A DNA stretch of 60,339 bases from Clostridia bacterium (GTDB lineage: Bacteria > Bacillota > Clostridia > UMGS1883), in the NCBI GenBank assembly GCA_045646985.1, contig JAZRLV010000037.1, positions 1 through 60,339 on the forward strand, read 5' to 3'. The number at the start of each line of letters is the position of its first letter. Within the stretch, counting starts at the first letter, position 1. A program made the position numbers and the translations under genes. Positions 12,946-55,302 of this stretch are shown one piece after another. Below the pieces are notes generated by a model. That model was given only the letters and a program-made list of their open reading frames with translations. It was not told the origin of the DNA and did no database searches.

Positions 12946-12958
12946 ATATTTAAACCTC

Positions 12959-14519: not shown

Positions 14520-14546
14520 CACCCCTTTTATATGAGGTGAGCTTTA

Positions 14547-17234: not shown

Positions 17235-17268
17235 TTATATTTCACTTTAAGAAAAGGACGCAAACATT

Positions 17269-41048: not shown

Positions 41049-41165
41049 AAATGTTTATTATAGGGGATTACTTTCTTATAGAGCGGTTCGTCGAAAATCG
41101 CCGAACCCTACAAAAAATTTGATATTCAGTTTTGCTTGTGGTTGACCGACTTTTTCGACAGTCTG

Positions 41166-41198
41166 AAATGAGCATAACCACCTTGGTTATGCTCATTT
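41166..41198 (-). terminator. Hairpin 14 nt downstream of the S8 protease stop codon
   Basis: AAATGAGCATAACCA / TGGTTATGCTCATTT, a 15-bp stem with only a short U-tract. Confidence 0.5.
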
Positions 41199-41211
41199 CG
41201 TGTTATTACTT

Positions 41212-42606
41212 CTATTTGTTTTCTTTCACAAATCTATATAGAATTGCAGCAAATTCACTTCTTGTTGCGTTATCCTTTGGTGCAAGGATACTCTGTGACT
41301 TGCCGTTTATAAGTCCTGTACCAACTGCCCAATTCATAGAATCTATTGCATACTCCGAAATCTCTTTTTCGTCTTTATAATTGAGATTTTCTTCAAGCGT
41401 TACAGCATCCATGCCTTTATAGATTGCATATCTCATCATAATTGTTGCAATCTGTTCACGGGTAATATTATCATTCGGTGCAAACTTAGTTTCTGTTACA
41501 CCATATACAAGTCCAACTTGTTTTGCCCAGGAAATTGCATCAGCAAAACCCGAATCTGCGGCAACATCTTCAAAAGAAGCCTTAGCATCAGCAAGTGGCT
41601 TTCCTTCCAGTCTGTAAAGTGCCTCTACAAGCACGGCTCTTGTAAGTTTCTTCTGCGGCGAAAATTCAGCCTTTGAAGTGCCGTCAATCAAATGTTTGTC
41701 CACGCAGAAATTTACGTTTCCAAAAAACCAGTCTTCGCTTTTTACATCACGGAATATCTGTCCCGCTGCCGCATATTCACGGGCGGTTTTCATATTCAGT
41801 CTGCCGTAGCCGTTTTGATTATCAAAGCCGGCTTCACCCAAATCATCCGCCGTTGCACAAAGAATTTGCCCTGCACGCACAGCCGTGAGATAAGGATATT
41901 CGCTCATCAGTTTTGCGACGGCAGCCGATGCCCAGGCGGCACTGTAGCTTGTTCCGCTGACCGCCATGCGATTCCCTTTCATAGAGGAAACGAATACCTT
42001 TTCACCGGGTGTTAATATATCCACCCCGCTATGTGCGTTGGAATCTTCCCAAACAGTGGTTTTTTCTTCATTTAGTCCGCCGATGCACAAAACATTCTCA
42101 AAAGCACCGGGATAATATGCGGTGTCGTCGCCATCATTGCCTGCAGACGAAACCACAAGCGTACCTTTTTCGCCAACATACTCTATCGCATCAAAAAGCG
42201 CAGGTGTATAGGTTTTTACTCCGGAGCTGATATTGATAATATCGCAATCATAAATATCCTTTGCATCTCTAATCATCTGCGCAAGAAGAGCAACATCGCC
42301 TTTTGTCACGGCATTGTCTTCCCGAACATAATAGACCATCGGCACCAGAACCGCATCTTCGCAGATACCTGCAAGATACGCTTTCGGCGAGCCGACAATT
42401 ATCGAGGCAATGCTCGTTCCGTGACCGACTGTATCTTCTGTTGAGCCGTTTTCCACAATATAGTTTTTGCCCTCGGCAATTTTGTCTTCTGAAATTGAGA
42501 CAGAGGATATGCCCGTGTCAATAATGGCAATTCTTACTGCGTCCTCTGCAAAAGCTGTTGTTGTGAAAGTAAAAAATATAAGTATTGTTACAAGTAATTT
42601 TTTCAT
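41212..42606 (-). CDS. Secreted S8 (subtilisin-like) serine protease with C-terminal SLH domains
   Basis: Signal peptide. Catalytic triad motifs IAIIDTGIS (Asp), GHGTSIASI (His) and SGTSYSAAW (Ser). The C-terminal part of about 170 aa has SLH-type repeats (F.DV......A..WA...GL..G....F.P...ITR.Q.A). Confidence 0.85.
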   Translation of the reverse strand: MKKLLVTILIFFTFTTTAFAEDAVRIAIIDTGISSVSISEDKIAEGKNYIVENGSTEDTVGHGTSIASIIVGSPKAYLAGICEDAVLVPMVYYVREDNAVTKGDVALLAQMIRDAKDIYDCDIINISSGVKTYTPALFDAIEYVGEKGTLVVSSAGNDGDDTAYYPGAFENVLCIGGLNEEKTTVWEDSNAHSGVDILTPGEKVFVSSMKGNRMAVSGTSYSAAWASAAVAKLMSEYPYLTAVRAGQILCATADDLGEAGFDNQNGYGRLNMKTAREYAAAGQIFRDVKSEDWFFGNVNFCVDKHLIDGTSKAEFSPQKKLTRAVLVEALYRLEGKPLADAKASFEDVAADSGFADAISWAKQVGLVYGVTETKFAPNDNITREQIATIMMRYAIYKGMDAVTLEENLNYKDEKEISEYAIDSMNWAVGTGLINGKSQSILAPKDNATRSEFAAILYRFVKENK

Positions 42607-42623
42607 AAATCACCTTTTGGTCT

Positions 42624-42651
42624 AAAACGGCAGACCGGAGTCTGCCGTTTT
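42624..42651 (-). terminator. Terminator between the giant gene and the S8 protease gene
   Basis: AAAACGGCAGAC-TCCG-GTCTGCCGTTTT read on the minus strand. It starts 13 nt after the giant-gene stop and ends 18 nt before the protease ATG. Confidence 0.7.
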
Positions 42652-42663
42652 AGTTTTAGTTAA

Positions 42664-45600
42664 TTAGCCTTTTACAATTGTGATGGTCTGTACTTGCTTA
42701 CCGTTCGCATAAATTGCTACGGTTTGTGTGCCGCTGAACTTCGAACCATCAACTGTAATTGTGTTTCCGGAAGCAGTTACTGCACTGTTATTTGTTGTGT
42801 ATGTAACACCAACTGCACCGTTTACACCGTAAGTTGTAAGGTTAAAGCTCATCTTGTTGTTTCCATAAACCGTAATCTTCGGAATGGATGTAGCCGTTTT
42901 ACCACTAGTCCAAGTACCCATACTTCCTGTTGTGTCATTTTTGTTTGAATTACTCATAATATCCATACTGTTGCCTCTAGCATCTATTATGGTTACAGTC
43001 CAGTTAAGTGTATTACTGTATCCAAAGATTCCGAGGTTATGTATCCACCAAGTAACTTCTCTTGGATATACACCATAAGTCGGAGGATTAAATGTCTTGG
43101 TATGCTTACTGGATGCCAAATTATCATCATCTTGCGATTCGGTTTGTCCGTTGCTCCAATGAACAGTTGTCTGAATGTCTTTACCACAGGAACTGCTGGT
43201 CCAATAAGTTACCGAAGTTTGGTAGTAGCTTGTCTGCGCACTGTAAGAATTACGCACGAAATGAACTACGATTGTAACAGTATCTGTATAGTTCATCGTA
43301 AAGATCTTAGGAGCGTTCTTATCATAGCGTACACCGTTTAATGTGTAGCCGTCATAAGTGTATCCACTAGCAGCCTCCGGAACGATTGTATAAGTCTGGT
43401 CGTATACAAGCGAACCGTTTGCGCCAAGGCCCTGGATAGATGCAGTGTTATCACCATCGCCTTCCATCTTGAATGCGCGATCCGTGCTTACAGTAAACTT
43501 ATAGCTGTTTGCGCTGTATGTTGCCGTGATGGTTGTAGGTCCGGTGATTTCATCAAAGGTCTTATCCCAACCTGTGAAGGTGTAACCTGTTCTTGACGGA
43601 TTTGCCGGTGCTGTTGCTGCATCAAAGTGGTTGATTGTATTGCTCTTGAGCACAGTGCCGTCATGATCAACAAACTGTACGGTATAACTGTTTAAACTCC
43701 ACTGTGCATACAGGTTGATAACACCACCGTCTGCATCTGTAAGATTTTTGATTTCTGCACCATTGCTGTAAGCCGTACCCTTACCGTTCGGGTCTGTATT
43801 CCAGCTGGTGAAGGTATAGCCTGTGTAAGCAAATGCATTTGCATTCAAAGCAGCTGCCTGATCATAGATGAAGGACTGCGATGTGTAGGACGATGTATTG
43901 TTGTTTGCATAGAAGTTTACTGTGTACGTAATCGGTGTCCAGTTTGCACGATAGAACAGAGCGCCTACATTGCTACCTTTTTCAAGCGTTACAAGCTTTT
44001 GCGGTTCGCTGCCGTTTGCACCTGTCCAACCGGCAAAGATATAACCTTTCTTGGTCGGCTGCTGCAAAATGAAGCTTTCGGTTTCAACCGTGTAGGATGT
44101 ATCTGCATCTGTGATTGTACCGCCGTTAAGTTCGTATGTAATCGTGAATGTATCAAGACTCCATCTTGCATAAACCGTGCGGTTGGATGCATGATCCGTA
44201 ACAGTTTCTTCTGTTACCTCAACGCCGCCTTCTAAAGGTTCAGTAAACCAACCAACAAAACTGTAACCTCTTCTGTACGGGGACGGGAATTTGCCGTACG
44301 GCTGGCCGTATACAACATCCTTAGATACGAAGTCGGTCATACCGCCCTGACGGTCAAATGTGAGCTTGTATGTGTTTGCTTCCCAAGCTGCCTTAAGCTC
44401 GATTCCGCCCGTTACCGGCGTTTCAAAGCTATATTCTTCACCGTTTACTGTCCAGTAAAGGAATGTATACCCCACCTTGCTCGGGTCAGCAGGCTTCGTT
44501 GCAAGAGAATTGTAAGCAATGCTCTGCGCTTTCACCTCACTGCCACCATCAGAATTAAAGGTTACATCGTAATAGTTGATGGTAAAGTGCGGATACAATG
44601 TCTGATTCTCAGTAATTTCCACTACTGTATCTTCTTCAATCTTGTTACCTGCACCGTTTTCAAGCGTGAACCAACCCTTGAAGGTATAACCCGTACGCTC
44701 AAGCTGCGGAAGTGTGCCGTATGTGCCACCGTAAATAACCTCACTTGTTTCCTCCGTTGTACTGAAGGTGACCTCATAGGTATTGCGACGGTAGAAAATC
44801 TCAATCTTGGTATCGCCAAGGTTAGAAATCTTCTTCTGCTCAAAGCTTTCCGCGGTAAAGCCCGGATAGCTGTAAGATTGTGCCAAGGTCATAGAATCTG
44901 TTACACCCGTGAGCACCTGCGTATCTGCAAGCGCATAGGTTTCGCCGCTGACATCATACTGATAGTGATATACAGTATATTCTGTCGACTTGCTCGGCTC
45001 CCAGATTGCATAAAGCGAAACAACCGCAGCCTGCTCGCTTGCAAGATTGTGTACAGTTGCGCCATCTGCGTAAACCGTGTCACTGTTTTCAAGCGTCCAG
45101 CCTGCAAAGTCATAACCCTTCCAGGTAAATTCGTTAGCGTTAAGCTTTGCATCAACATCGTAAGTGAATGTCTGTGCTTCCATCGTACCGACACCGCCGT
45201 TTGCGTTAAACATAACCTCATATGTATTCGGTGTCCAGTTTGCCAAAATCGATGTTCCGCCAACAGGTACTGTTTCCTCTGTCAAGTTCCAACTTTCAAA
45301 GGTGTAGCCTGTACGTTCTGGAATTTCGTCAGTTTCCTCAATTGTTGCACCATATCTCTGGTTTGTCGTTGCAACAGTATTACCGTCATTGTCCAGCCAC
45401 TTAATATCGTAGTAATTTCTGTCGTAGTATACATCCACAACTGTTGACTCGTCACCGGCAATATTGGTCTGCTCAAATTCCTTTGCAGTAAAGCCCGGAT
45501 AGTTGTGTGCAACAACATTTGTGTCTGTATCTGTTACGCCTGTATGGTCGTCAGTTTCAACCAGTGTATATTCATCATCATCTGCATTCTGCTGCCAATG

Positions 45601-48600
45601 TTTAGAAATGTACTTTGTGCTTGTGCCTGCCTGCCATACTGCGTAGAGTGTAACTATGTCATCTTGAACATCAGCAAGGTTGTGAATGATACCACCGTCA
45701 GAATATTTAACCTCACCGTCTTCAGCTTCTGCCCAGCCTACAAATACATATCCGTCATGGTTGAATGTATTTGCGTTAAGCTCATCATCAACATCATATG
45801 TAAATGTCTGTGCTTCCATTTCGCCGATACCGCCGTTTGCATCAAACTTAATGGTGTAGGTAATCGGTGTCCATGTTGCCACAACAGACATTCCATCAAT
45901 AGGAACGATTGTCTCAGCAATGTTCCAACCGGCGAACTCATAGCCTGTGCGTTCAAGGCTTTCGGTTGTTTGGGCAACTCTTGAGCCGTATTTCTGACTT
46001 GTTGTATCAACAAGCTCACCATTGTAGCCGAGCCACTTGATGTCATATTTATTTCTGTCGTAATATACATTAACAACAGTTGTTCCGTCGCCGGAAATGT
46101 TTGTCTGCTCAAAGCTCTTTGAAGTGAAACCTGCATATGCATGTGCAATTACATTGGTCTGGGTATCTGTAACACCGTTGTGTTCTTCGGTTTCATGCAT
46201 TGTATACCCATCATCTTCCGCGTTCTGTTGCCAATGCTGAGAAATGTACTTAATACCCGAACCTGCCTGCCATACTGCATAGAGTGTAACCACTTCATTC
46301 TCTTTGTTTGCAAGATTTGTTACCTTGTAACCATCGGTATATTTTACACTTCCTTCAGGTGTTTCGCTCCAACCGAGGAATACATAACCGGCACGCTCTA
46401 TGGTATTCAAATCCAATGCTGCTGTTGTGTCATAGGTGATTGTCTGTTCCCCTGCAACAGTATCCTCATCATAGTTTGTCTTAAACTGTACCTGATAGGT
46501 AATCGGACTCCATGCTGCAGAAACGGATGTTCCGCCAACAGGTACCGTAGTATCAGGAACTGCCCAACCCGCGAAGGTATAACCCGTGCGCAGAGGATTT
46601 CCCGTTTCAGGTTCAACGATTTCAGATTCAAACCTCTGACTTGTTGTTGTAACAATTTCACCGTTATAACCAATCCAACGAATATCGTAATTGTTTCTTG
46701 TATAGTACACATTCACTTCTGTTGTACCATCACCCACGATTTCTTTCTGTGTGATTGTGTCAGGAGTGAACCCAGCATAAGTATGTGCAATGACATTGGT
46801 CATACTTTCTGTTACGCCGCTGTGTTCATTTGTTTCTTCCAAAGTATATTTATCGTCATTCACATTCTGTAACCAGTGCTTCGAAATATACTTCGTGCCG
46901 GAAGCCGGCGCCCACTTCGCATACAGCGAAACTGCATCACCTTGTACCTCAGAGAGATTGAGTACGCTTGCGCTGTCGGCATATACAACCTCACCGTCAG
47001 CTGCAGTTGCCCAACCGATAAAGTCGTAACCCGGGCGAACAATTGTGTTGACTGCTAATGCAGTGTTCTGATCATATGTGATTTCCTGCTCGCCTTCAAC
47101 CTTATTTTCACCAAAGTTGGAATTAAACTGTACCTTGTAGGTAATCGGTGTCCAATTCGAAGAAATTTCCACATCGTGGTCAGGCATTGTGTGCTCTGCA
47201 AGTGTCCAACCTGCAAAGATGTAACCAGTGCGCAAAGGCTCAACCGACGGCTCTGTAATCTCTGCTTCATAAAGAACAGAAGTTGTTGCTGCAGCGTTGC
47301 CGTCAGCACCCTTCCAGATTACATTGTAAGCATTTCTGGTGTAATATACCTGAACAACCGTGCTGCCGTCGCCCACAATCACTTCTTGGGTAATCGGCTT
47401 CGGCGTAAAGCCTGCGTAGTTTTTCGCTTCAGCTGTTGTTGTATCTTCAGTTGTTCCCGATTTTGCAGTCGTTTCGGCAAGTGTATAGCCTTCACCGGAT
47501 ACATTCTGCTTATAATGCTCTATCTTATAAGATGCCTGTCCCGGTTTCCAGATTGCATATAAGTTGTAGGTCGCATCCTGTGTATCGCAAAGATTTACTA
47601 CAATTGCACCGTCGTCATAAGTTTTTTCGTTATCTGTCCAGCCTGCGAACACATAACCCGGATTTTCAAACTTATTCACTGCAAGGCTTGTATTTGCATC
47701 ATAAGTTAAGGTCTGTTCAGAGGTTTTTGCAGTTTCCAGACCGTTATGGAATACAACCTTATAGGTAATCGGTGCCCATTTTGCGTAGGCTTTAATCTTA
47801 GTTGCCGGCATCGGTTCCATCGGAACATTCCAGCCATCAAAGATATAGCCCGTGCGCTCAGGTGCTGTATCTACAACCGGCTCTGTAACACTGCCACCAT
47901 AGATGACAGAGGTCGTTACAATAACTTCATCTTTATGGTTAAGCCACTCAACATCAAAATACGCTCTGTTGTAATAAAGCTTCAAGACAAGACTTCCGTC
48001 CGGTGCAACTTTTCCTGATTTGATATTGTTTGCATTTTCTTCATCAAACGCAAAACCGGAAATCGCTGCCGGAACAGCATTTACGTCAGTGTCGGTCTTG
48101 CCGCTTAAGAGAGAATCTTGCGCATACTTTGTATATGTACCGTCAAGCTCGGCAAGATAATGCTCTACCTTATAAGCCACACCGTCTGCCGGATCCCATT
48201 TTGCATAAAGGGTAATTTCGTTTGCAGGCATTTTATCGGAAGTAAAATTAACCGCGTCCGTATACGCTTCATCCATATACCAACCCGCAAATACATAACC
48301 TTGCTTTGTAAGCTCTGCTTCCGGCTTCACAATCTTCTTACCGTAGGCAACCGGAATTGCCTGTATTGCCGTAGCACCCTTTGTATCAAAGTTTACATTG
48401 TAAAGATTTCTCTTATAATACAGTTTGATAACGAGTGTTCCGTCTGCAAGAATGGCTGCCGTTTCAGCTTCCTGGGCGTTTACGGTAGCTTTTTCAAGTG
48501 CCATGCCCTCTACATCTGTTTTTGCCAGTACATTAACATCTAAAGCCTTATTGGTTTCGCCCTGTTTTTCCTCAAAGGAATTCAAACTGTAGCCGTCTTT

Positions 48601-51600
48601 ATCTGCTCTTTCATAATAGTGCTCAACTCTGTACGGAGTTTCTGTATCAGGAACCCATGTCGCTGTAAACACACTGTCCTGAGCAGGCATTACAACCGGC
48701 ACTTCCTTATCCCAACCGTCGAATAAATATCCGAGCTTTGTTACGATTGGCGTAGAAACATTCGCACCATAGTAGTTACTAAATACAGTTGGATTCTTAT
48801 CATCTTCGCCAGCTTTAAATGTTACGTTGTACTTGTTTCGTTCATAGTAAACCTGAAGCACAAGACTTCCGTTTGCCTTAACCACACCTTGTACTGTCTC
48901 AACAGGCGAGAATCCTTCGTAATCATTCGGCTGTGCTATAACAATAGACTCTGTTGTTCCTTTAAGAATAACAGTATCGTCTGTTACAAGGTCAAATTTC
49001 TTTGAACCGAGCTGTCTTAAATAATGCTCAACCTTGTATGGTGTATCCGTTGCAGGCGTCCATTTTGCATATAAAGTAAAGCTTGTATCGTTTTTGCCCG
49101 GAAGATTGGTTGTAGAACCGGTGTAAGGTCTAGTGAGTGCTTCATCCTTATACCATCCGGCAAATACATAACCCTGCTTTGTGGGATTCTGAGGCCACTT
49201 AATAGCCTCATTTCCTGCACCGCTTAAGGTTTTAACTTGAGTTCCGCCGTTAGAATTAAATGCAATATATCTGACACCCTCCGGATCAGACCAACTGATT
49301 TTCAATGTGCGGCTCGGTGTTGTAGAAGTATATGCCAAAGGCGCACCCTTGAACACAATCTTCATTTCCGTTTCTTCTTTAACCGAATTTCCCGGATTTA
49401 CAACAATCCGGTTATTTTCTGCGTCATAACTGAATTTATCATTATCAAATTCAATATGGAAATAATCTGTTATCGGTTTATCTTCGTCGTCTGCGAAATC
49501 AATATAGTCTTTAGGTACAAGCGGAGTGCCGCGGTTGCCCTTTTCTTCGCTTGTGGACCAGTTGCCTTCCTCGTCCTTTTCTCCGCCGTATACTTCACCG
49601 CTCTTTAAATCCATATACTTCATTTCAAAGAGCTCTGTCGGAAGATCAAGTGTTTCCTCAAGCATTTCTTGCGTATAAATATCCTCGCTTTGTTCGTAAG
49701 CAAAGTCTAGAATATTCTCCGATTGGCCTATCTCAAGGAACGGCCATTGATTTGAATACAGACTCGGCGTCCATGCATATTTGCTGTTCAAAACCTCGGC
49801 GACAAAGTTAACGTCAAGATATGCGCCGATTTCAATGAGCATTGCACCGGACATGGATTTCTCTTTAACCCATTCCTTTTTCGTTGTGCCGTCTTCTTGT
49901 TCCACAGGTTGATGGTAATTTGAGATACTCAAGTAAAAATATCCCCAGAACTGCGCATATAGACCACCTTCAGCCTGAACACCTATGCCATCGACCTTAA
50001 CAGAGAATAAACCAACCAATACCTTTGCTCTTACGCCGGCTTTGATTCCCATCATACCCATGACATAGAAGTCAAATTTATAACCATTTGTGCCAACATC
50101 AACGCTTTCCGATTCGGCTTCTTTGTTCATAACCGAAATATGAATGGTGTGCTTTTTGGATGCCTCATAGCAGAAGCTTACACCAAGCGCAACATTCAGG
50201 TTTGCCGAAACTACAAAGTCAACCTTTACGCCGTAGGCAAGAACACCATATGGGTCTACGGTGCCTGACTTATCAATAATATTGAACTCAAAAATGTCTA
50301 TCCAAGCATCATTGGCATTTTCCATGAAGTCCTTGTACTTATCCTCAAGACCTCCACCGTGGCTTCCCTCTGCCTCCGCCATAACCTTTTTGTATTTTTC
50401 TGATGCCTTCTTTATGCTTTCGCTAAGCTTGAAGAGTTTCTTAGTTCCCCACTCTGCTCCGTCATTTGCCGGCCACGGCATACCTGCATCTACTTCGTCC
50501 TGATCAAGTTTTGCAGTTGCGGTAATACCGATACCTGTGTACGAACCGATACCGACACTGGCATTCATTTCATAGTCGGCAATGTATGGGAATATCCATT
50601 TCTTCTTCCATACAGCACCGCCGTCCGCAGTAAAACCAAGTAAAACTTCCTCTTCAAAAAGAGCTGTAAGTTCCAAATGAAGTTTCTTTTTACTGCCTTC
50701 TTTTTGAACATCATACTCAAACTTTGCTGAAATTTCGATTCTTACACCTGTACTGTCTTCGAAATGTTCCAGTTTTGGTGTGATTGTTACGGAAACCTGA
50801 ATAGTGCTGTCTTCGGCAGTTTCAAAAAGATTACCCATCAGATGGATATCTCCATCTTCAAACTTTCTGCCATCAGGATAGATAATAATCAAATCCTCCG
50901 GTTTGGTATCCTCACCGAAAACCTCTTGAACTTCTTCCGTAAGAAGTGATGCCTCAGCAAGATATTGCGCAGCCTCCTGAATAAAGTTGCTTCCCATAAG
51001 CTGTGCATTAACAGCTTCTTCAATCTTTTGCTTATCTAAAGCATCCTCGATTTCTTCTTCCGAGAGTTCTTTTTCGTTGAACATATCCATTGAGGCAAGA
51101 ACATCAGCCTCTGCTGCCTCGGCATAAGTAATCGTAGCAGTTTCTTCGGAATATTCTATCGCAGTAATTCTGGCATAACCTGCATTTTGAGCCGCACCGC
51201 CAAATTCACCGGTATAAAAGCCAATAAAATCTCCGACTTCAACAATAGTCTGAGAATCAAGATTCATAACCTTGTATTCATCCCCGGAAAAATCAAGCTT
51301 ATCTTTGTCGATAACTAAACTTCCGGCATCAATACTCTCTACACCATCGCCTTCGTCAATATCAATCGGCAATACATCGGGCGTAAAAAGAACGTCTGTT
51401 GTTTCTGCCACTTTGTAATAATATGTATTTGAATCTATTGCGGTAATTTCAAGGTATGCCACATCGCCGTCATGGTCGCTTAAAACACTTCTTTCTGACG
51501 GCTTTGTTCCTGAATAAACCGCAACTGTGTCACCCACAGCTATTCCGCTACCATTATAGGTAAAGCTGCCGTTGCCTTCCGTTGCCTGGTATGTAGCCTC

Positions 51601-53139
51601 ACCATCTTCTGAAAATGTTGCTTTATAAAGACCTGAATATGCAAGTACATTTTCTTTATCTACCTGAGAAAGTTCTTCATCCGCATTAATATATTTGATT
51701 CCGTCATTGATCTGCAGTTCAAGAGCTTCCTCTTTGGCTACAATAACATTGTAAAAGCGAACATATTCGTCTGCTTCATCTCCGTTGGCAAATGTTGCAG
51801 CATAAATCATTTCGTCATTTAAAAGCTCAAACTGATATGTGTCGCCTGCTGTGTAACCGTTGTTATTCTTTATGGTATAAAGTCCATTTGACCCGCTTAT
51901 TGTAAGCGTTTCTTCAGGCAGCAGTGCATTTGCATCCTCTACACCGTCCGTTCTGTCAGGAGAAGAAATATTTTTAAAAGTAAAGTCTACTCCAAGTTCC
52001 GGCTTGGTATCTGCTTTGATTTTGATTTCAAAGTTTGCCGGAGCATCTTCCTGTGTAATAAAATTCTGCTTTCCGCTTGGCTCCATGAGCTCTACTTCGC
52101 TGAATTTTGCATACACATCAACGTCACCGGTCAACACATCGTCGCTCTTAACCGGTTTCGTCAATTCTTCATCATAGTACCAGCCGATGAAAATCTGATT
52201 GTCCGCCTGTGCAGGCACGGAAACAAGGCTCAAAAGAGAGCGTGATTTTGCCATTTCTTCAACAGTTTCATCGCCAATGTGCTTAGTTACTTTGTAATAG
52301 ACCGTTTTGCTTCCGCCACTTAATGTAGGCTTTTTAACAGGTTCATCTTTCTTCGCCTCTTCCGGCTCTGTAACTTTTGGGACATCTGGCTCACTATACC
52401 ATACTTTTACAGATTTATCTGTACGCTCGCAAAGTGCCGCAGTTTCAGCACGTGTCGCCTTGCTGTACGGGTCAAAGCTTTTACCGTCTCCATTCAAAAG
52501 GCCAACAGACCAAAGCTTTAAAACAGAATCTTTAGCCCACGAAGCAACCGATGAAATATCCGCAGGTGTAGTATCAACCTTTTTCCCTGTATCATATTCC
52601 ACATCGAATGCGTCAAAATATCTTACAAAGAAAGTTGCCATTTCCTGTCTTGTTACAGGGCTGTTTGGAGAGAATTTATCTTCACCCGTGCCGCCCGTAA
52701 TACCGTGTTTTTTTGCCCATGCTACATAAGGAGCATAATACGCATCCTTTGAAACATCCGAAAATTCGCTCTCACCTTGATAGGAGGATGCATCAACACC
52801 TGCCATTCTGCCGAGAACGGTAACGAACATAGCTCTTGTAAGTTCGCCTTTCGGATCAAATTGATTGGCACTTACTCCTGAAAATATGCCATTCTCCTTA
52901 ACATATTTTACAGAATCATAGTACCAACTGTCTTTTGAAACATCCGAAAAGTCAGATAGATTTTCTAAAATTTCTCCAGCATCTATTGTGAGCTGTTTCT
53001 CGGTTGTTCCATCGTTTTCCGATGTCTTTTGAACAGCTTGTACGTTATTCTCTGTTGCAAAAACCGAAACAACATTTGTCGGTATAACAGTAAATATCAT
53101 AACAAGTGTTAAAAGCATCGCCATAATTCTTTTTGACAT
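42664..53139 (-). CDS. Giant (3491 aa) SLH-anchored surface protein with InlB-B-type repeats, MucBP-like modules, a large unassigned central region and a Big_2-like C-terminus
   Basis: The start at MSKRIMAMLLTLVMIFTV... (ATG 53139, GGAAGGAG RBS) gives a signal peptide. Three SLH repeats follow (FSDVSKDSWYYDSVKYV..., FSDVSKDAYYAPYVAWA..., ASWAKDSVLKLW...). Many G(Y/W)xFxGW repeats alternate with YKVEHY...GF......DGS.V..VYY.R modules. One uninterrupted ORF of 10.5 kb. Confidence 0.85.
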   Translation of the reverse strand: MSKRIMAMLLTLVMIFTVIPTNVVSVFATENNVQAVQKTSENDGTTEKQLTIDAGEILENLSDFSDVSKDSWYYDSVKYVKENGIFSGVSANQFDPKGELTRAMFVTVLGRMAGVDASSYQGESEFSDVSKDAYYAPYVAWAKKHGITGGTGEDKFSPNSPVTRQEMATFFVRYFDAFDVEYDTGKKVDTTPADISSVASWAKDSVLKLWSVGLLNGDGKSFDPYSKATRAETAALCERTDKSVKVWYSEPDVPKVTEPEEAKKDEPVKKPTLSGGSKTVYYKVTKHIGDETVEEMAKSRSLLSLVSVPAQADNQIFIGWYYDEELTKPVKSDDVLTGDVDVYAKFSEVELMEPSGKQNFITQEDAPANFEIKIKADTKPELGVDFTFKNISSPDRTDGVEDANALLPEETLTISGSNGLYTIKNNNGYTAGDTYQFELLNDEMIYAATFANGDEADEYVRFYNVIVAKEEALELQINDGIKYINADEELSQVDKENVLAYSGLYKATFSEDGEATYQATEGNGSFTYNGSGIAVGDTVAVYSGTKPSERSVLSDHDGDVAYLEITAIDSNTYYYKVAETTDVLFTPDVLPIDIDEGDGVESIDAGSLVIDKDKLDFSGDEYKVMNLDSQTIVEVGDFIGFYTGEFGGAAQNAGYARITAIEYSEETATITYAEAAEADVLASMDMFNEKELSEEEIEDALDKQKIEEAVNAQLMGSNFIQEAAQYLAEASLLTEEVQEVFGEDTKPEDLIIIYPDGRKFEDGDIHLMGNLFETAEDSTIQVSVTITPKLEHFEDSTGVRIEISAKFEYDVQKEGSKKKLHLELTALFEEEVLLGFTADGGAVWKKKWIFPYIADYEMNASVGIGSYTGIGITATAKLDQDEVDAGMPWPANDGAEWGTKKLFKLSESIKKASEKYKKVMAEAEGSHGGGLEDKYKDFMENANDAWIDIFEFNIIDKSGTVDPYGVLAYGVKVDFVVSANLNVALGVSFCYEASKKHTIHISVMNKEAESESVDVGTNGYKFDFYVMGMMGIKAGVRAKVLVGLFSVKVDGIGVQAEGGLYAQFWGYFYLSISNYHQPVEQEDGTTKKEWVKEKSMSGAMLIEIGAYLDVNFVAEVLNSKYAWTPSLYSNQWPFLEIGQSENILDFAYEQSEDIYTQEMLEETLDLPTELFEMKYMDLKSGEVYGGEKDEEGNWSTSEEKGNRGTPLVPKDYIDFADDEDKPITDYFHIEFDNDKFSYDAENNRIVVNPGNSVKEETEMKIVFKGAPLAYTSTTPSRTLKISWSDPEGVRYIAFNSNGGTQVKTLSGAGNEAIKWPQNPTKQGYVFAGWYKDEALTRPYTGSTTNLPGKNDTSFTLYAKWTPATDTPYKVEHYLRQLGSKKFDLVTDDTVILKGTTESIVIAQPNDYEGFSPVETVQGVVKANGSLVLQVYYERNKYNVTFKAGEDDKNPTVFSNYYGANVSTPIVTKLGYLFDGWDKEVPVVMPAQDSVFTATWVPDTETPYRVEHYYERADKDGYSLNSFEEKQGETNKALDVNVLAKTDVEGMALEKATVNAQEAETAAILADGTLVIKLYYKRNLYNVNFDTKGATAIQAIPVAYGKKIVKPEAELTKQGYVFAGWYMDEAYTDAVNFTSDKMPANEITLYAKWDPADGVAYKVEHYLAELDGTYTKYAQDSLLSGKTDTDVNAVPAAISGFAFDEENANNIKSGKVAPDGSLVLKLYYNRAYFDVEWLNHKDEVIVTTSVIYGGSVTEPVVDTAPERTGYIFDGWNVPMEPMPATKIKAYAKWAPITYKVVFHNGLETAKTSEQTLTYDANTSLAVNKFENPGYVFAGWTDNEKTYDDGAIVVNLCDTQDATYNLYAIWKPGQASYKIEHYKQNVSGEGYTLAETTAKSGTTEDTTTAEAKNYAGFTPKPITQEVIVGDGSTVVQVYYTRNAYNVIWKGADGNAAATTSVLYEAEITEPSVEPLRTGYIFAGWTLAEHTMPDHDVEISSNWTPITYKVQFNSNFGENKVEGEQEITYDQNTALAVNTIVRPGYDFIGWATAADGEVVYADSASVLNLSEVQGDAVSLYAKWAPASGTKYISKHWLQNVNDDKYTLEETNEHSGVTESMTNVIAHTYAGFTPDTITQKEIVGDGTTEVNVYYTRNNYDIRWIGYNGEIVTTTSQRFESEIVEPETGNPLRTGYTFAGWAVPDTTVPVGGTSVSAAWSPITYQVQFKTNYDEDTVAGEQTITYDTTAALDLNTIERAGYVFLGWSETPEGSVKYTDGYKVTNLANKENEVVTLYAVWQAGSGIKYISQHWQQNAEDDGYTMHETEEHNGVTDTQTNVIAHAYAGFTSKSFEQTNISGDGTTVVNVYYDRNKYDIKWLGYNGELVDTTSQKYGSRVAQTTESLERTGYEFAGWNIAETIVPIDGMSVVATWTPITYTIKFDANGGIGEMEAQTFTYDVDDELNANTFNHDGYVFVGWAEAEDGEVKYSDGGIIHNLADVQDDIVTLYAVWQAGTSTKYISKHWQQNADDDEYTLVETDDHTGVTDTDTNVVAHNYPGFTAKEFEQTNIAGDESTVVDVYYDRNYYDIKWLDNDGNTVATTNQRYGATIEETDEIPERTGYTFESWNLTEETVPVGGTSILANWTPNTYEVMFNANGGVGTMEAQTFTYDVDAKLNANEFTWKGYDFAGWTLENSDTVYADGATVHNLASEQAAVVSLYAIWEPSKSTEYTVYHYQYDVSGETYALADTQVLTGVTDSMTLAQSYSYPGFTAESFEQKKISNLGDTKIEIFYRRNTYEVTFSTTEETSEVIYGGTYGTLPQLERTGYTFKGWFTLENGAGNKIEEDTVVEITENQTLYPHFTINYYDVTFNSDGGSEVKAQSIAYNSLATKPADPSKVGYTFLYWTVNGEEYSFETPVTGGIELKAAWEANTYKLTFDRQGGMTDFVSKDVVYGQPYGKFPSPYRRGYSFVGWFTEPLEGGVEVTEETVTDHASNRTVYARWSLDTFTITYELNGGTITDADTSYTVETESFILQQPTKKGYIFAGWTGANGSEPQKLVTLEKGSNVGALFYRANWTPITYTVNFYANNNTSSYTSQSFIYDQAAALNANAFAYTGYTFTSWNTDPNGKGTAYSNGAEIKNLTDADGGVINLYAQWSLNSYTVQFVDHDGTVLKSNTINHFDAATAPANPSRTGYTFTGWDKTFDEITGPTTITATYSANSYKFTVSTDRAFKMEGDGDNTASIQGLGANGSLVYDQTYTIVPEAASGYTYDGYTLNGVRYDKNAPKIFTMNYTDTVTIVVHFVRNSYSAQTSYYQTSVTYWTSSSCGKDIQTTVHWSNGQTESQDDDNLASSKHTKTFNPPTYGVYPREVTWWIHNLGIFGYSNTLNWTVTIIDARGNSMDIMSNSNKNDTTGSMGTWTSGKTATSIPKITVYGNNKMSFNLTTYGVNGAVGVTYTTNNSAVTASGNTITVDGSKFSGTQTVAIYANGKQVQTITIVKG
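43495..49280 (-). repeat. Coding repeat array inside the giant gene (diverged modules, including super-repeats of about 640 nt)
   Basis: The KYIS(K/Q)HW(L/Q)QN module starts recur at about 46895, 46252 and 45615, with related starts at about 47533 and 44985. Antisense pseudo-ORFs in the track recur with the same period. Boundaries are approximate. Confidence 0.6.
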
Positions 53140-53235
53140 ATTTTTTCTCCTTCCTGTAAACATTGTTTGCCTTGGATTATAATTTTCTGATTTATCGCAT
53201 ATACAGTACAACCTTTCATTTCGTTTTACTGAAAG

Positions 53236-53306
53236 ATTATAACAAAAAAACTCCCCGAAAAGGGGAGTTTGGCATAGATTGCATTTTTTTGGCACAAATT
53301 GCATTT
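53236..53306 (-). promoter_or_regulatory. Candidate activator-dependent promoter of the giant gene: two 19-nt direct repeats plus an extended -10
   Basis: On the minus strand, AAATGCAATTTGTGCCAAA (53306..53288) and AAATGCAATCTATGCCAAA (53286..53268) have a 20-nt period and match at 17 of 19 positions. TGTTATAAT (53244..53236) follows 23 nt after the second repeat (26 nt to the TATAAT hexamer). I see no good -35. Confidence 0.4.
53248..53270 (-). terminator. Terminator of the two-component operon, embedded between the direct repeats and the -10 of the giant gene
   Basis: AAACTCCCC-TTTTC-GGGGAGTTT followed by TTTTTG on the minus strand. Confidence 0.7.
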
Positions 53307-53310: not shown

Positions 53311-54570
53311 TTAAAAATTCAGACAGATTTTTGAGATAAACTTTTCGTTTTTAACAGTAAAATCAAACATACCTTCATATTTATTTGTCGCAGTAATAAC
53401 AGAGTTTATTCCAATACCGTAAGTGCTCTCGTCAAATCTGAGATTGGCTTTGCACGGATTTTCTATTTTCACAAGCAATCGATTTTCTTTTTCTCTTATG
53501 TCAATATCAATAAGCTTTTCCCCCGATTTAATTTTCTTTGTTGCATTGATTGCATTTTCGAAAAGATTAGCAATTACTATAACCAAGTCCTTAGGCGATA
53601 CGGGTATATCGTGCCCGGCACGGACCGCAATTTTCACTTTAATACCCGCTTCTTTCGCTTTCTTTTCATACACGGAAAGAACTGTATTTATCGTTGGATT
53701 TTTGCAGCAGCTTATTTCTCTAAGGCTATCAGAGTCATCATCTACAAGAGTTTTTAAGTAGTCCTTTACAGTTTCAATATCGTTTTTGTTTGCAAATTCC
53801 AAAAGCACACGGTTATGATGGCGTCTGTCGTGTCTTATTCTGCGTTCCTGTGCCATTTGCAAATTTTCTTTTTCAATCTGCAAAAGAAGAAGCTCGTTTT
53901 GCTGTTCTGTTTCACGTTTCACCGCAACCTCTGTCATATTTTTGATATTGGAAAATATGACGGGATATACTGCAAAAATTGAAATACTCAGAAACAAAAA
54001 CGGTACAAATTCAGGCATATAAATGCTTGTGATTTTAACAGGAAATACGGAGGTTGCCACTATAGTAATTACAAATATGCAATTCACAAAAACAAGCGGA
54101 TACCAACCTGTTACAATACTTTTTGACGCGGCACGGCAGAGCGGGCAAACGCATTTCAAAAAGTAAAATATAACGCCAACCATAAGAGTAGCGTGAATAA
54201 TCGTTTTGACTATAGCATACATACTGGGGAAAGCGCCCTGTATCGCCATAAAAAGCGCCATGAATATGCAGAAGAAAATGGAGTATGTAAGAATAGTGAA
54301 CAGCCTTTGAGAAAATCTGCCTTTTGTAGTTGCAAAAAAGATAATGTATTGAAAAACATAGGCAGTGACAAACCCTAAAAAGAATTTCATACCAATATCT
54401 TTTATCACAAATTCAGAGAAATACCCGATGATTCCCTGAAAGACAACCCAGATACCCCAGACGGAAAAGGTTGTTTTTTTACTGTACTTCAAATCGGATG
54501 AATATATACCCGAAATGGCGTGTGCCACGAGAACAACTAACTGTTCAAACATAAGTGATATCATAGCCAT
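53311..54570 (-). CDS. AgrC/HPK10-type membrane sensor histidine kinase (GHKL, HATPase_c_5-like)
   Basis: Six or seven N-terminal TM segments, H-box IRHDRRHHNRVL and N-box NLFENAINA. Located 3 nt downstream of a LytTR regulator gene. Confidence 0.85.
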   Translation of the reverse strand: MAMISLMFEQLVVLVAHAISGIYSSDLKYSKKTTFSVWGIWVVFQGIIGYFSEFVIKDIGMKFFLGFVTAYVFQYIIFFATTKGRFSQRLFTILTYSIFFCIFMALFMAIQGAFPSMYAIVKTIIHATLMVGVIFYFLKCVCPLCRAASKSIVTGWYPLVFVNCIFVITIVATSVFPVKITSIYMPEFVPFLFLSISIFAVYPVIFSNIKNMTEVAVKRETEQQNELLLLQIEKENLQMAQERRIRHDRRHHNRVLLEFANKNDIETVKDYLKTLVDDDSDSLREISCCKNPTINTVLSVYEKKAKEAGIKVKIAVRAGHDIPVSPKDLVIVIANLFENAINATKKIKSGEKLIDIDIREKENRLLVKIENPCKANLRFDESTYGIGINSVITATNKYEGMFDFTVKNEKFISKICLNF

Positions 54571-54573: not shown

Positions 54574-55302
54574 TTAATTCTCCTCTCCTGCATACTGAAG
54601 TTCCCAAAAAGCTTCTTTTATTGGGTTATGCGCACCACGAGGAAGAAATAACTTTGTATTGTTATTGAAGCACACTTCCCCGGTAGATACACTTTTAACT
54701 TTATTAAGATTTATTATATAAGCACTTCCGCCACGAACAAATCCGCCATATTGTGACAGTTGCTCAAAAAGTTCCGAAACTGTCATCCTCGAACGCACTT
54801 GACCGTCGCAGGTAAAATTCACATACTGGTAGTGAGAGCGCGACTCGGTATAAAGGATATTGCTTATGTTAATATTTTCAACTCCGTTCTCCGTTTTTAG
54901 TCTTATGAATTTACTACTAAGCTTTTTGGCTTTTTCGACCGCCACGTCCATTGCTCCATAAAACTTTTCCGGATTAAGTGGTTTTATTAGATAGCGAAGT
55001 GTATCTGTTTCAAGACTTTCGGGAGCATGTTCTATTGATGTTGTCAAAAATACAATAGGACTTTCAATACCTTTTCTCCGAAGTTCTCTTGCAAGGTCTG
55101 TGCCCATTTCATCACCGATATACACATCCAGCAGAAATATATCAAAGAATTCGCCGTTATCAATACTGTTCAGCAACGAAGTTGCCGAGTCAAAAGAAAA
55201 AACTTCAAGCTCCGATGTTTCATTTTTCTCAGAATATTTTTTGATATAGTACGAAACCTCGTCTAAAATGACTGATTCATCATCGCATATAGCTATTCTC
55301 AA
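54574..55302 (-). CDS. LytTR-family response regulator
   Basis: Receiver domain (MRIAICDDE...DIFLLDV) plus a C-terminal LytTR domain (I..I.Y.ES..HY......DG......T..E....L....F.R...S...N). Apparent TTG start after GGGAGGAG. Confidence 0.9.
   Translation of the reverse strand: MRIAICDDESVILDEVSYYIKKYSEKNETSELEVFSFDSATSLLNSIDNGEFFDIFLLDVYIGDEMGTDLARELRRKGIESPIVFLTTSIEHAPESLETDTLRYLIKPLNPEKFYGAMDVAVEKAKKLSSKFIRLKTENGVENINISNILYTESRSHYQYVNFTCDGQVRSRMTVSELFEQLSQYGGFVRGGSAYIINLNKVKSVSTGEVCFNNNTKLFLPRGAHNPIKEAFWELQYAGEEN

Follow-up and report, generated by a model that had tools for sequence, protein, structure and literature searches.

A portable gene cassette of Clostridia couples a two-component system and an S8 protease to a giant SLH-anchored repeat protein and suggests a regulated surface fiber

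The window analyzed here, a 60,339-nucleotide contig of a Clostridia bacterium (JAZRLV010000037.1, assembly GCA_045646985.1), carries on its minus strand a giant gene bracketed by a two-component system (TCS) and an S8 protease gene (Table 1). The giant gene is an uninterrupted open reading frame (ORF; 42664..53304) whose frame is intact over 10.5 kb. We kept the start chosen in the initial annotation, an ATG at 53139; it is preceded by a good ribosome binding site (RBS) read in the sequence (GGAAGGAG) and yields a product of 3491 aa and 380 kDa. The N terminus (MSKRIMAMLLTLVMIFTVIPTNVVSVFA, followed by TEN beyond the likely cleavage point) was judged from sequence to have a basic n-region, a hydrophobic core, and an A-x-A-like site. 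ORF scan, RBS, and predicted signal peptide together bear out the earlier reading of a single 10.5-kb, 3491-aa frame.

Table 1. Features of the cassette, with positions in the window (F, Flg_new copy; M, second stalk module)
Feature	Residues (aa)	Position	Strand	Basis
Response regulator, receiver plus LytTR DNA-binding domain	242	54574..55302	(-)	Pfam
AgrC-type (HPK10-like) sensor histidine kinase	419	53311..54570	(-)	TM helices, HATPase_c_5
Two 17-nt direct repeats, candidate LytTR boxes		53267..53304	(-)	Read in sequence
Intrinsic terminator of TCS operon		53248..53270	(-)	Terminator scan, RNA fold
Extended -10 element TGTTATAAT (TGnTATAAT)		53236..53244	(-)	Read in sequence
Giant protein: Sec signal peptide, predicted	1-29	53053..53139	(-)	Sequence reading
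Giant protein: three SLH repeats, wall anchor	~60-245	52405..52962	(-)	Pfam SLH, 4.7e-27
Giant protein: first Flg_new copy	290-347	52099..52272	(-)	Self-HMM match, 4.8e-11
Giant protein: conserved base	348-1296 (949)	49252..52098	(-)	No Pfam/PDB relative
Giant protein: stalk, [F M]x3 [F F M]x5 Fx6	1297-3218	43486..49251	(-)	Self-HMMs, Pfam
Giant protein: distal tail, candidate binding tip	3219-3491	42667..43485	(-)	
14-bp hairpin between giant and protease genes		42622..42653	(-)	RNA fold
S8 subtilase with three C-terminal SLH repeats	464	41212..42606	(-)	Pfam
Hairpin after protease gene, end of unit		41164..41200	(-)	RNA fold

Domain order in the giant protein was mapped with self-derived HMMs. 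The signal peptide is followed by three SLH repeats, one Flg_new (InlB B-repeat) copy, a 949-aa base, the stalk, and a 273-aa tail. The Pfam SLH match reached 94 bits against a cutoff of 20.8; two stretches pass singly, and the third (aa ~190 to 245), seen by eye, is kept in homologs. The SLH sequence is conserved in homologs P0001, P0003, and P0006 to P0008, and the first Flg_new copy is conserved in all homologs. Flg_new was matched by Pfam at 4e-153, and the 1922-aa stalk holds 19 to 20 copies interspersed with 8 copies of a second, ~70-aa module defined by alignment, for which profile searches of Pfam and PDB gave no match. Searches of Pfam and NCBIfam found no known adhesive domain anywhere in the protein. 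The initial annotation had proposed this same succession of signal peptide, SLH repeats, single Flg_new copy, unassigned region, and repeat stalk, all of which stands; the Big_2-like end that it added finds no Pfam support even at an E value of ≤5, at which the window's own tail has no Pfam match at all. Because the SLH anchor is N-terminal, the stalk should project outward, as had also been proposed. Across the family the base always adjoins an envelope anchor, which in relatives without SLH repeats is an N-terminal transmembrane (TM) or lipoprotein anchor.

The initial annotation had raised the possibility that the long repeat region reflects collapse or expansion during assembly. TRF found no tandem DNA repeats in the giant gene, and its dispersed repeat copies are only 61 to 80% identical. 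An independently assembled MAG, L001, encodes a 3485-aa ortholog that aligns collinearly from end to end (93 to 95% nucleotide identity) and has the same repeat number. Given the lack of tandem repeats, the divergence of the copies, and the near-equal length in L001, assembly collapse is therefore unlikely. These properties also led us to reject classification as a periscope protein, a class whose stalks vary in length through near-identical tandem repeats.

The base contains three small β domains, a linker of invariant sequence (DVLFTPDVLP), a segment of helices, a β meander, and a terminal β domain. A Pfam search and a sequence search of PDB gave no match to it, and relaxed-threshold Pfam searches with ten diverse base sequences returned only scattered, inconsistent sub-threshold matches. 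The base had appeared rare in a word-indexed search, which found 8 to 9 relatives even with a 63-sequence profile. This rarity was an artifact of the search: exhaustive HMMER recovered at least 591 protein clusters at 50% identity (E value of ≤1e-3; 399 clusters at ≤1e-30) from Acetivibrio, Ruminiclostridium, Oscillospiraceae, Lachnospiraceae, Paenibacillus, and others, and a genome scan for the giant protein's N-terminal region found 75 loci in 75 genomes. A distribution across many Clostridia groups and Paenibacillus refutes the earlier description of the block as lineage specific. On the evidence of these searches, the base is a widespread Clostridia protein family absent from the domain and structure libraries (Pfam, PDB), and it would merit a new domain family entry.

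An AF2 model of the base, built on a 31-protein alignment, reached a pLDDT of 75 and a pTM of 0.60; a 9-sequence alignment had given an unusable model (pLDDT of 46). In the model, the meander consists of at least eight amphipathic β-strands of 30 to 38 residues with tight turns between them, and it is divided by an acidic, disordered insert of ~65 residues. The strands alternate strictly between hydrophobic and polar residues, giving a hydrophobic face of 20 or more residues. We searched PDB and BFVD with Foldseek, using the whole multi-domain model. The best-probability matches were to domains 1 and 2 of Sap (0.85 to 0.87), with the Sap assembly domain, SbsB, and SbsC also matched; all are weak, with probabilities of ≤0.87 on pieces of ~200 residues and a whole-model TM of ~0.07. 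Barrel and pore proteins (EspP, BamA barrels, α-hemolysin, and the PlyB pore) were matched at probabilities of 0.01 to 0.12, and this whole-model search gave no convincing structural match for the long-strand meander.

Comparison with L001 set the two ends of the protein apart. Purifying selection on the base is strong, with ~99% identity between the two genomes (dS of 0.05, dN/dS of 0.09). Over the distal ~640 aa (about aa 2850 to 3490), these otherwise near-identical strains differ by replacement with a far more divergent allele: dS in the distal part of the gene is 0.5 to 1.5, and the tail is ~68% identical with a dS of 0.63. Positive selection at the tip was rejected, as dN/dS there is ~0.3 and dS itself jumps 10- to 30-fold; the divergence therefore reflects allelic replacement. 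The tail is made up of a divergent B-repeat (its first ~80 aa match Flg_new_2 in 3 of 4 homologs scanned, at 3.2e-5 in Pfam), a Trp/Thr/Ser-rich domain with no assignment, and a terminal β segment. Profile and sequence searches of PDB gave no match to it, and only 4 of 154 family representatives share it, compared with all 154 for the base. Its position and its allelic replacement suggest that the tail may be a ligand-binding tip. An almost frozen base joined to a recombined distal end is the pattern expected of a surface structure whose tip sets the cell's binding targets.

Pfam identified the receiver (Response_reg, 4.5e-12) and LytTR (6.8e-11) domains of the response regulator. The kinase has ~6 predicted TM helices, an HDRRHH box, and a HATPase_c_5 domain (1.1e-14). 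No AgrB/AgrD-type gene was found among the ORFs of 60 aa or more, which were covered systematically, between 53139 and 56182, and no AgrB/FsrB- or AgrD/FsrD-like gene was present among the recurrent neighbor families of the 75 loci. On the other side of the giant gene, the protease matched Peptidase_S8 (3.4e-33) and SLH (8.5e-25) and has an intact catalytic triad in S8 order (D30 in IIDTG, H62 in GHGT, and S221 in SGTSYS), together with N157. Its catalytic domain starts at residue ~20, right after the signal peptide (residue 20 corresponds to residue 22 of mature subtilisin BPN′), and Pfam detected no Inhibitor_I9 propeptide; the enzyme therefore resembles processing subtilases. Its best NCBIfam match was mycosin, at 136 bits against a cutoff of 279. 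The hairpin between the giant and protease genes (-26.7 kcal/mol; z of -7.7) has no U-run on the coding strand and may provide partial attenuation or mRNA stabilization. The hairpin after the protease gene folds at -23.9 kcal/mol (z of -7.0).

The region upstream of the giant gene contains two direct repeats, ATGCAATTTGTGCCAAA (53304-53288) and ATGCAATCTATGCCAAA (53283-53267), spaced 21 bp start to start. Paired imperfect direct repeats with a period of ~21 bp, overlapping the -35 region or just upstream of it, are the arrangement of a LytTR-regulated promoter, and we treat these as candidate boxes. They are the only two exact matches to the motif in the window (1.5 matches are expected at ≤3 mismatches); no convincing copy was found elsewhere in the window, including upstream of the regulator gene. 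The extended -10 element follows the proximal repeat at a distance of 25 nt and precedes the giant gene's start codon by 97 nt; as read from the sequence, it probably belongs to the giant gene's own promoter. The preceding TCS operon appears to have its own terminator, a 9-bp G+C stem followed by U7. Direct repeats spaced at 21 bp were ~8-fold more frequent upstream of family members (0.264 per kb) than in control DNA (0.034 per kb), and 19 were observed at spacings of 20 to 22 bp, compared with ~2.7 expected. Repeats at these spacings were detected in only 19 of the 69 loci, with sequences that vary from one lineage to another. In L001, a second copy of the whole box-hairpin-minus-10 cassette follows the protease gene and precedes another, unrelated small ORF, so the regulon would be larger than the cassette. 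A small Cys-rich ORF of L001 has no counterpart in the window or in the other loci.

We scored synteny in the 75 genomes with the giant protein's N-terminal region, counting for each partner only the testable loci. In 33 of 53 loci (13 co-directional, 20 divergent), the 4 kb upstream of the giant gene contained a response regulator homolog and a kinase; the other 20 had no TCS. Of 56 loci, 28 had an S8 homolog directly downstream; in 27 of these it lay within 300 bp, and it often overlapped the end of the giant ORF. About half of the loci thus lack S8. All three partners were together in 16 of the 45 fully testable loci; 13 had the TCS only, 6 had the S8 gene only, and 10 had neither. De novo clustering of all neighboring ORFs in the 75 genomes returned only the LytTR regulator, the AgrC-type kinase, and the S8 protease as recurrent families. 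The same series was evident in the precomputed Pfam labels of an independent JGI contig, L077 (HATPase_c_5, Response_reg plus LytTR, the giant gene, and Peptidase_S8 plus SLH). Similarity between L001 DNA and the window is confined to 55311 to 41413, that is, from 9 nt upstream of the regulator's start codon into the protease gene, and the flanks of the L001 cassette are unrelated to those of the window.

The four genes thus form a portable cassette that includes both a two-component regulator of its own and a dedicated protease. The view of the TCS, giant gene, and S8 gene as one unit, put forward in the initial annotation, is supported by their co-occurrence as a recurrent unit, by the limits of the homology to L001, and by the 21-bp-spaced repeats at the giant gene's promoter, the linkage being frequent but not obligatory. 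The block was also rightly called accessory: the scanned remainder of the window consists of housekeeping genes (SMC, RuvABC, pyrB, and similar). Carriage by a plasmid or phage was rejected, as there were no plasmid matches and the phage search returned a single match, an unannotated 12-kb "Bacteriophage sp." record.

Flg_new has been treated as a stalk domain of fibrillar adhesins (Monzon, Bateman, and coworkers; PMC9210967). Like the fibrillar adhesins of Firmicutes, the giant protein has an envelope anchor, a long tandem-repeat stalk of small β domains, and an annotation gap at its anchor-distal end. Unlike them, it is anchored by N-terminal SLH repeats rather than a C-terminal LPXTG motif, so that its polarity is reversed; it has no recognizable distal adhesive domain, and it has an extra 950-aa base and linked LytTR TCS and S8 genes. 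The B-repeat (Flg_new) fold unit is shared with the Listeria internalins (InlB, InlA, and InlH), but the giant protein lacks their leucine-rich repeat (LRR) domain and their GW or LPXTG anchor. Assignment as an internalin was rejected, since Pfam found no LRR family and the NCBIfam internalin models scored 115 to 121 bits against cutoffs of 1050 to 1600, over the B-repeats only (internalin_A: 121 bits, cutoff of 1600). We found nothing specific in the literature on this domain combination.

On balance, the cassette probably builds and controls a very long fiber on the Gram-positive (monoderm) cell surface. It most likely encodes a fibrillar adhesin under TCS control, in which the base is conserved and the tip can be swapped, together with a protease that processes it; each of these functions is one that we infer. 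The base would be a rigid envelope-proximal platform, formed of S-layer-like Ig-like domains and the long-strand meander, that carries the stalk across the wall and S-layer or above them, and the tail would be the ligand-binding tip. The AgrC-type kinase would sense an extracellular cue, probably a peptide, and phosphorylate the LytTR regulator, which would bind the two 21-bp-spaced repeats overlapping the -35 region and activate the extended -10 promoter. The protease gene may be co-transcribed by read-through of the hairpin that lacks a U-run. The propeptide-less protease, which its own SLH repeats would keep in the same wall layer, would then cleave the giant protein at a specific site, leading to its maturation or shedding, much as Cwp84 acts on SlpA or mycosin on EspB. 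The giant protein may therefore be matured proteolytically, as the initial annotation had suggested.

Few genes of gut and plant-fiber-degrading Clostridia are as large or as poorly understood as those for giant Flg_new-repeat proteins, and one large subgroup of these proteins, the clusters recovered here, shares the 950-aa anchor-proximal region. The recurrent regulator, the candidate operator repeats, and the processing-type subtilase offer experimental handles in cultured carriers, candidates being Ruminiclostridium papyrosolvens C7, Acetivibrio mesophilus N2K1, and Paenibacillus mesotrionivorans P15. Should the links to regulation and processing be borne out, the cassette would give a tractable model for the deployment, control, and remodeling of megadalton-scale surface fibers by Gram-positive anaerobes.

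The giant protein might instead be a structural envelope component, such as a spacer across the wall or a minor subunit of the S-layer or sheath, whose base forms S-layer lattice contacts and which S8 matures as Cwp84 matures SlpA. The SLH anchor, the extreme conservation of the base, the lack of a detected adhesive domain, and the best-probability Foldseek matches, which are to S-layer proteins, are consistent with this idea. As in Sap (B. anthracis), SbsB, and SbsC, an SLH anchor precedes Ig-like β domains (by Foldseek, in part of the base), but there is no sequence similarity to these proteins, the giant protein is about four times larger, and S-layer proteins have neither a long-strand meander nor an Flg_new stalk. 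The locus resembles C. difficile slpA/cwp84 in pairing the gene for a wall-anchored protease with that for a wall-anchored surface protein bearing the same type of wall-binding repeat, and the logic that we propose is likewise site-specific maturation outside the cell; Cwp84, however, is a C1 cysteine protease with CWB2 repeats rather than an S8 serine protease with SLH repeats, and SlpA is an S-layer subunit, whereas the putative substrate here is a giant repeat fiber. We regard a structural role as unlikely: S-layer subunits are expressed constitutively and at high levels, unlike a 380-kDa protein with a dedicated signal-responsive regulator; the long Flg_new stalk (1900 aa) and the allelic replacement of the distal end fit a projecting, interaction-exposed fiber; and relatives without SLH repeats are anchored in the membrane.

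Another possibility is that the genes are neighbors for regulatory reasons only, the TCS controlling the protease and the surface protein separately while S8 spares the giant protein. LytTR systems next to protease genes are established, as in fsrABDC-gelE-sprE, where Fsr controls gelE-sprE. The cassette resembles the Agr and Fsr systems (AgrCA and FsrCA) in its multi-TM HPK10-type kinase with HATPase_c_5 and its LytTR regulator, in the 21-bp-periodic paired direct repeats just upstream of the target promoter, and, as in fsr-gelE-sprE, in the protease gene within the regulated neighborhood. It differs from both in lacking an AgrB/FsrB- or AgrD/FsrD-like gene and in a repeat sequence unrelated to the AgrA box. 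Separate control would also accommodate the many loci that keep one partner (13 with the TCS and 6 with S8) and the second boxed promoter that drives an unrelated small ORF in L001. It accounts poorly for the closeness of S8, which in 27 of the 28 cases lies within 300 bp downstream, in lineages whose bases are only ~30% identical, and which frequently overlaps the end of the giant ORF. The absence of a propeptide is typical of specific processing subtilases, and the window's S8 carries the same SLH wall anchor as the giant protein. For these reasons, we consider a purely regulatory association doubtful.

Two readings give the meander an active role. In the first, which we hold to be quite improbable, the base is a new monoderm envelope machine: S8 would cut the disordered acidic loop of the meander and so switch the protein from one state to another (such as assembly across the wall or S-layer, fiber release, or insertion into a target), and the kinase would read a cleavage product or the mechanical state of the fiber, the four genes together making up a self-contained circuit for sensing surface contact. 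In the second, the meander would be a latent module that inserts into membranes or forms pores, or else the monoderm equivalent of the translocator of inverse autotransporters, and S8 cleavage of the insert would activate it. The long strands with their tight turns and strict alternation, the disordered insert between them, the low-probability Foldseek matches to barrels and pores, and the adjoining gene for a dedicated, propeptide-less protease would suit such a module. The order of anchor, β region, repeat passenger, and tip also recalls the peptidoglycan-binding N terminus, β-rich region, long repeat passenger, and distal tip of intimin and invasin (type Ve), but this is an analogy of layout only, as the monoderm hosts (Paenibacillus, Ruminiclostridium, and Oscillospiraceae) have no outer membrane. 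True type Ve membership, which implies a 12-stranded outer-membrane β-barrel in a diderm host, was rejected, since Pfam detects no intimin β-barrel and Foldseek probabilities for barrels and pores do not exceed 0.12. The hydrophobic face exceeds the thickness of a bilayer and fits the core of a soluble β-sandwich, the meander adjoins the wall anchor and not the distal end where a toxin would act, and half of the loci lack the protease; a pore or translocator is thus very unlikely.

That the giant ORF is an assembly artifact or a decaying pseudogene, as its metagenomic source, its long repeat region, and the frameshift-split genes of several relatives (L012, L066, L076, and L077) might suggest, is barely credible in view of its unbroken frame, its divergent, non-tandem repeats, the collinear ortholog from an independent assembly, and a dN/dS of 0.09 to 0.5 along the whole gene. 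Elsewhere in the window, a WecG/TagA-type glycosyltransferase is encoded at 11500-12225.

On the best-supported reading, the giant gene encodes a fibrillar adhesin-like protein that is anchored in the wall, is regulated by a signal, and has an exchangeable distal end and a new conserved base (aa 348-1296). Its frame is open from 53304 to 42664 on the minus strand as a single uninterrupted ORF. The start codon is the ATG at 53139, with GGAAGGAG just 5′, from which a typical signal peptide is encoded; a coding role for the in-frame stretch 5′ of this ATG was rejected because an intrinsic terminator lies inside it. The product from this ATG has the length, 3491 aa, proposed in the initial annotation, whose arrangement of a regulator and kinase upstream and an SLH-bearing S8 protease downstream, all on the minus strand, was also recovered. 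Pfam matched SLH at 94 bits and, over 17 stretches, Flg_new (the InlB B-repeat) at 498 bits, and nothing else of substance. A repeat map was drawn with HMMs made from the protein's own repeats, in which Flg_new copies (F) are interspersed with a second module of ~70 aa (M; signature YxVxHY...G.T...GF...DG.T.V.VYY.RN.Y) that had no matches in Pfam or PDB.

Features of the giant gene, its product and its neighbors
Feature	Position	Strand	Remarks
Receiver+LytTR regulator	54574-55302	minus	5′ of giant gene
HATPase_c_5 kinase, ~6 TM	53311-54570	minus	5′ of giant gene
First direct repeat ATGCAATTTGTGCCAAA	53304-53288		directly 3′ of kinase stop codon
Second direct repeat ATGCAATCTATGCCAAA	53283-53267		21 bp start to start from first repeat
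G+C hairpin with U7	53270-53248		terminator of the two-component operon
Extended -10 element TGTTATAAT	53244-53236		
Signal peptide	aa 1-29		
Three SLH repeats	aa ~60-245		
One Flg_new copy	aa 290-347		
Base	aa 348-1296		unassigned region
Stalk [F M]x3 [F F M]x5 Fx6	aa 1297-3218		19 F copies, 8 M modules
Tail	aa 3219-3491		
S8 protease	41212-42606	minus	3′ of giant gene; three C-terminal SLH repeats

The giant gene is real and under selection. Collapse or expansion of repeats during assembly had been raised in the initial annotation; Tandem Repeats Finder reported no repeats in the giant-gene DNA, and the dispersed repeat copies share 61-80% DNA identity and are therefore too diverged for assembly collapse. 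The nearest relative (L001; JAZORN010000103.1), a different MAG with 93-95% DNA identity to the window, has an orthologue that is collinear and 3485 aa long, and dN/dS between the two genes is 0.09-0.5 across all regions.

The base defines a large family without an annotated domain that offers experimentally usable parts. Pfam searches with the base of the giant protein and of nine diverse relatives gave no match even at an E value of ≤1, and PDB sequence searches with the base as a single sequence or as a 63-sequence profile gave none. A word-indexed protein search returned at least 8 to 9 relatives; when 1.84 billion cluster representatives were searched exhaustively with a profile, the base was recovered in 591 proteins at an E value of ≤1e-3 and in 399 at ≤1e-30. 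In that search, full-length matches were nearly all 2000-3700 aa long, and the base began ~100-450 residues after the N terminus. Relatives lacking SLH repeats have an N-terminal TM or lipoprotein-type anchor instead; since they too begin with an anchor, the base is always anchor-proximal. Scanning one genome per species located the base in 75 genomes, among them Acetivibrio mesophilus, A. straminisolvens, Ruminiclostridium papyrosolvens, Oscillibacter, Neglectibacter, Sedimentibacter, Paenibacillus mesotrionivorans, and many Oscillospiraceae and Lachnospiraceae MAGs. A literature search returned no description of the base region or of the gene cassette.

At locus L041, two family members lie in tandem (4357-14484 and 14708-17914), the second SLH-plus-base gene beginning 224 nt past the first, at the position of the S8 protease in other loci. 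A full-length copy of the base (30.7% identity, 95% coverage) was found in a phage collection, in MT836193.1:8653-11238, an unannotated 12-kb GenBank record from human faeces labelled "Bacteriophage sp."; the record is probably a piece of bacterial DNA that binning assigned to the viruses. A frameshift-split homologue, P0006 (L076:1-9700 and 10001-18565), adjoins ParA/ParB, a NikA-like gene, and contractile phage-tail-like genes (sheath, baseplate J, LysM); no two-component system was seen near it, and its setting may be a mobile element.

All ORFs of the 75 loci were translated and searched with the window's neighbor proteins. Regulator and kinase genes both lay within 4 kb upstream at 33 of the 53 loci having at least 3.5 kb of upstream sequence, 13 being co-directional as in the window and 20 divergent. 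An S8 gene was found downstream at 28 of the 56 loci where the giant ORF stops at least 1.5 kb before the locus end; 27 of these 28 genes lay within 300 bp of the giant ORF, and overlap was frequent. Unsupervised clustering of 2146 flanking ORFs returned three recurrent real families, the regulator (42 loci), the kinase (38), and the S8 protease (32); most of the other large clusters consisted of shadow ORFs on the antisense strand, and one subgroup also had a small LemA-type gene. Precomputed Pfam labels on a JGI contig (L077) read HATPase_c_5, Response_reg+LytTR, LemA, a frameshifted giant gene, and Peptidase_S8+SLH. Cultured species that carry the complete cassette include Ruminiclostridium papyrosolvens C7 (L069; kinase 6239-7516, regulator 7513-8340, giant gene 8966-15538, S8 15489-16985), Acetivibrio mesophilus N2K1 (L014), and Paenibacillus mesotrionivorans P15 (L049). 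The match between L001 and the window is confined to 55311-41413, from 9 nt before the regulator start codon to a point within the protease's last SLH repeat, and both flanks beyond it are unrelated. The four genes are therefore the unit kept together, in a chromosomal context that differs between the two. The proposal in the initial annotation that regulator, giant protein, and protease form one unit holds in part: the regulator, kinase, and protease genes are the sole recurrent real neighbor families and, with the giant gene, make up the cassette shared with L001, but all three partners were present at just 16 of the 45 loci testable on both sides (two-component system only, 13; S8 only, 6; neither, 10).

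A small LemA-family single-pass membrane protein is encoded between a divergent two-component system and the giant gene, on the strand of the latter, at L077:9011-9562, L003:8440-8922, L016:8605-8955, L017:4294-4629, and L010:6684-7028, and is absent from the window. In a Faecousia/Eubacteriales subgroup without SLH and S8 (L062-L064, L067, L072, and L073), a conserved ORF of ~160 aa lies 12-58 nt past the giant gene and may be an alternative partner. At the protease-end junction in the window (41212-41413), DNA homology to L001 stops inside the third SLH repeat; the last ~75 residues of the protease are ~40% identical to those of L001 and the remainder ~97%. The cassette may recombine through SLH repeats acting as junctions. 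A palindrome with a perfect 16-bp stem (CTGTAGAAAAATGAAT...ATTCATTTTTCTACAG, 41003-41038) lies between this end of the cassette and a polysaccharide deacetylase gene, in a spacer with no counterpart in L001.

Sites of LytTR regulators such as AgrA, ComE, and PlnC are paired direct repeats with a periodicity of about two helical turns, abutting the -35 region. The two repeats 5′ of the giant gene are candidate sites of this kind; the motif was not found elsewhere in the window at ≤2 mismatches, and the giant-gene RBS and start codon lie 97 nt beyond the extended -10 element. Transcription would be predicted to start ~7 nt past this element. Across the family, 660 nt around each giant-gene start were scanned for 14-mers repeated with at least 12 matches. 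A sharp peak was found at spacing 21 (12 hits, 0.264 per kb, versus 0.034 per kb in other flanking DNA of those loci), and spacings of 20-22 were observed 19 times against ~2.7 expected, in 19 of 69 loci. The repeat sequences vary between lineages, as co-evolution of operator and regulator would predict. These data are consistent with binding by the co-encoded LytTR system, which probably controls the giant gene. In L001, boxes, hairpin, and -10 element are duplicated 3′ of the protease gene as a 74-nt promoter cassette, which suggests that the regulon reaches beyond the four genes. This second copy and the 80-aa Cys-rich ORF that follows it (VKEAKYTSDGYLVV...CPLWEKDSVPCCVSCEHDCFYC...) occupy L001:20887-21227; the ORF has no signal peptide, and no counterpart was found in the window or other loci.

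The spacer between the giant and protease genes contains a strong hairpin (-26.7 kcal/mol) that lacks a U-run and is followed by the protease RBS; the two genes would be co-transcribed past this hairpin, possibly with attenuation. In the protease, the catalytic domain directly follows the signal peptide (residue 20 aligns with residue 22 of mature subtilisin BPN′) and retains D30, H62, N157, and S221; no I9 propeptide was found. The top NCBIfam models, all below cut-offs, were type VII mycosin and the PatA/PatG processing proteases. Linked S8 proteins have three SLH repeats in the window and closest clades and are shorter in some other clades. These features fit a processing enzyme that resides in the wall and cuts at specific sites, and adjacency points to the giant protein as its substrate. 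Co-regulation of the two genes without a substrate relationship is considered unlikely given the processing-type profile; the subtilase probably cleaves the giant protein.

An AlphaFold2 model of the base from a 31-sequence alignment (pLDDT 75, pTM 0.60; segment residue i is giant-protein residue 343+i) comprises three small β domains, the second and third joined by an invariant linker (DVLFTPDVLP), a four-helix stretch, a meander with very long β-strands (segment residues 475-504, 507-537, 624-659, 664-701, 707-737, and 743-773) broken by an acidic, disordered, partly helical insert (538-603), and a final β domain. Disordered loops are predicted at aa 761-777, 882-928, and 1197-1217 of the giant protein. 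Along the long strands, hydropathy averaged over the family shows strict alternation for at least 20 residues, a pattern that fits a predicted large two-faced sheet, e.g., a sandwich core. Foldseek searches of PDB and BFVD with the multi-domain model as one query gave weak matches only, the most probable being to Ig-like domains of SLH-anchored S-layer proteins (Sap D1-D2, 0.85-0.87; SbsB and SbsC) and others to cadherin-like domains. The S-layer matches would suit an S-layer-type structural component; given a stalk built of Flg_new, which serves as a stalk domain (PMC9210967), we regard that role as improbable. A protease-activated, membrane-active β module, to which the alternating strands and adjacent protease might point, is very improbable, as the hydrophobic alternation run exceeds bilayer thickness and matches to outer-membrane barrels and α-hemolysin had probabilities of ≤0.12.

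The adhesin-like reading places the giant protein within the fibrillar adhesin concept through its Flg_new stalk, but its polarity is reversed and none of its domains is a known adhesive one. With ~28 stalk domains, the predicted fibre would be of the order of 100 nm. Internalins, periscope proteins, and inverse autotransporters were ruled out as classes for the giant protein, since defining features of each were tested for and not found. The regulatory part of the cassette works like Agr/Fsr modules but lacks AgrB and AgrD, and its protease and surface protein form a pair reminiscent of Cwp84 and SlpA. Giant repeat adhesins beside regulators are unsurprising in themselves.

Between the window and L001, the base is 98-100% identical (aa 401-1400; dS 0.05, dN/dS 0.09). 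Identity falls to 68-83% (aa 2801-3200) in the segment aa 2791-3218 (dS 0.50, dN/dS 0.32) and to 68% (aa 3201-3400) in the tail (dS 0.63, dN/dS 0.29); dS peaks at 1.1-1.5 in 150-codon windows, and the final ~40 residues are identical again. Positive selection at the distal end was rejected, with dN/dS at 0.29-0.32 and dS itself raised. The distal divergence is a recombination mosaic. The tail was found in 4 of 154 family representatives, other members finishing in different modules.

The rest of the scanned window is housekeeping (SMC, amidase, RuvABC, U32 peptidase, pyrB, SpoIVB, and MgsA). An 895-aa ORF without a Pfam match at 1e-5 (14547-17234, plus strand) and, directly 3′, a 562-aa protein with a GH26 (mannanase-type) domain (17269-18957, plus strand) may form a second accessory or poorly annotated surface/glycan-related pair.
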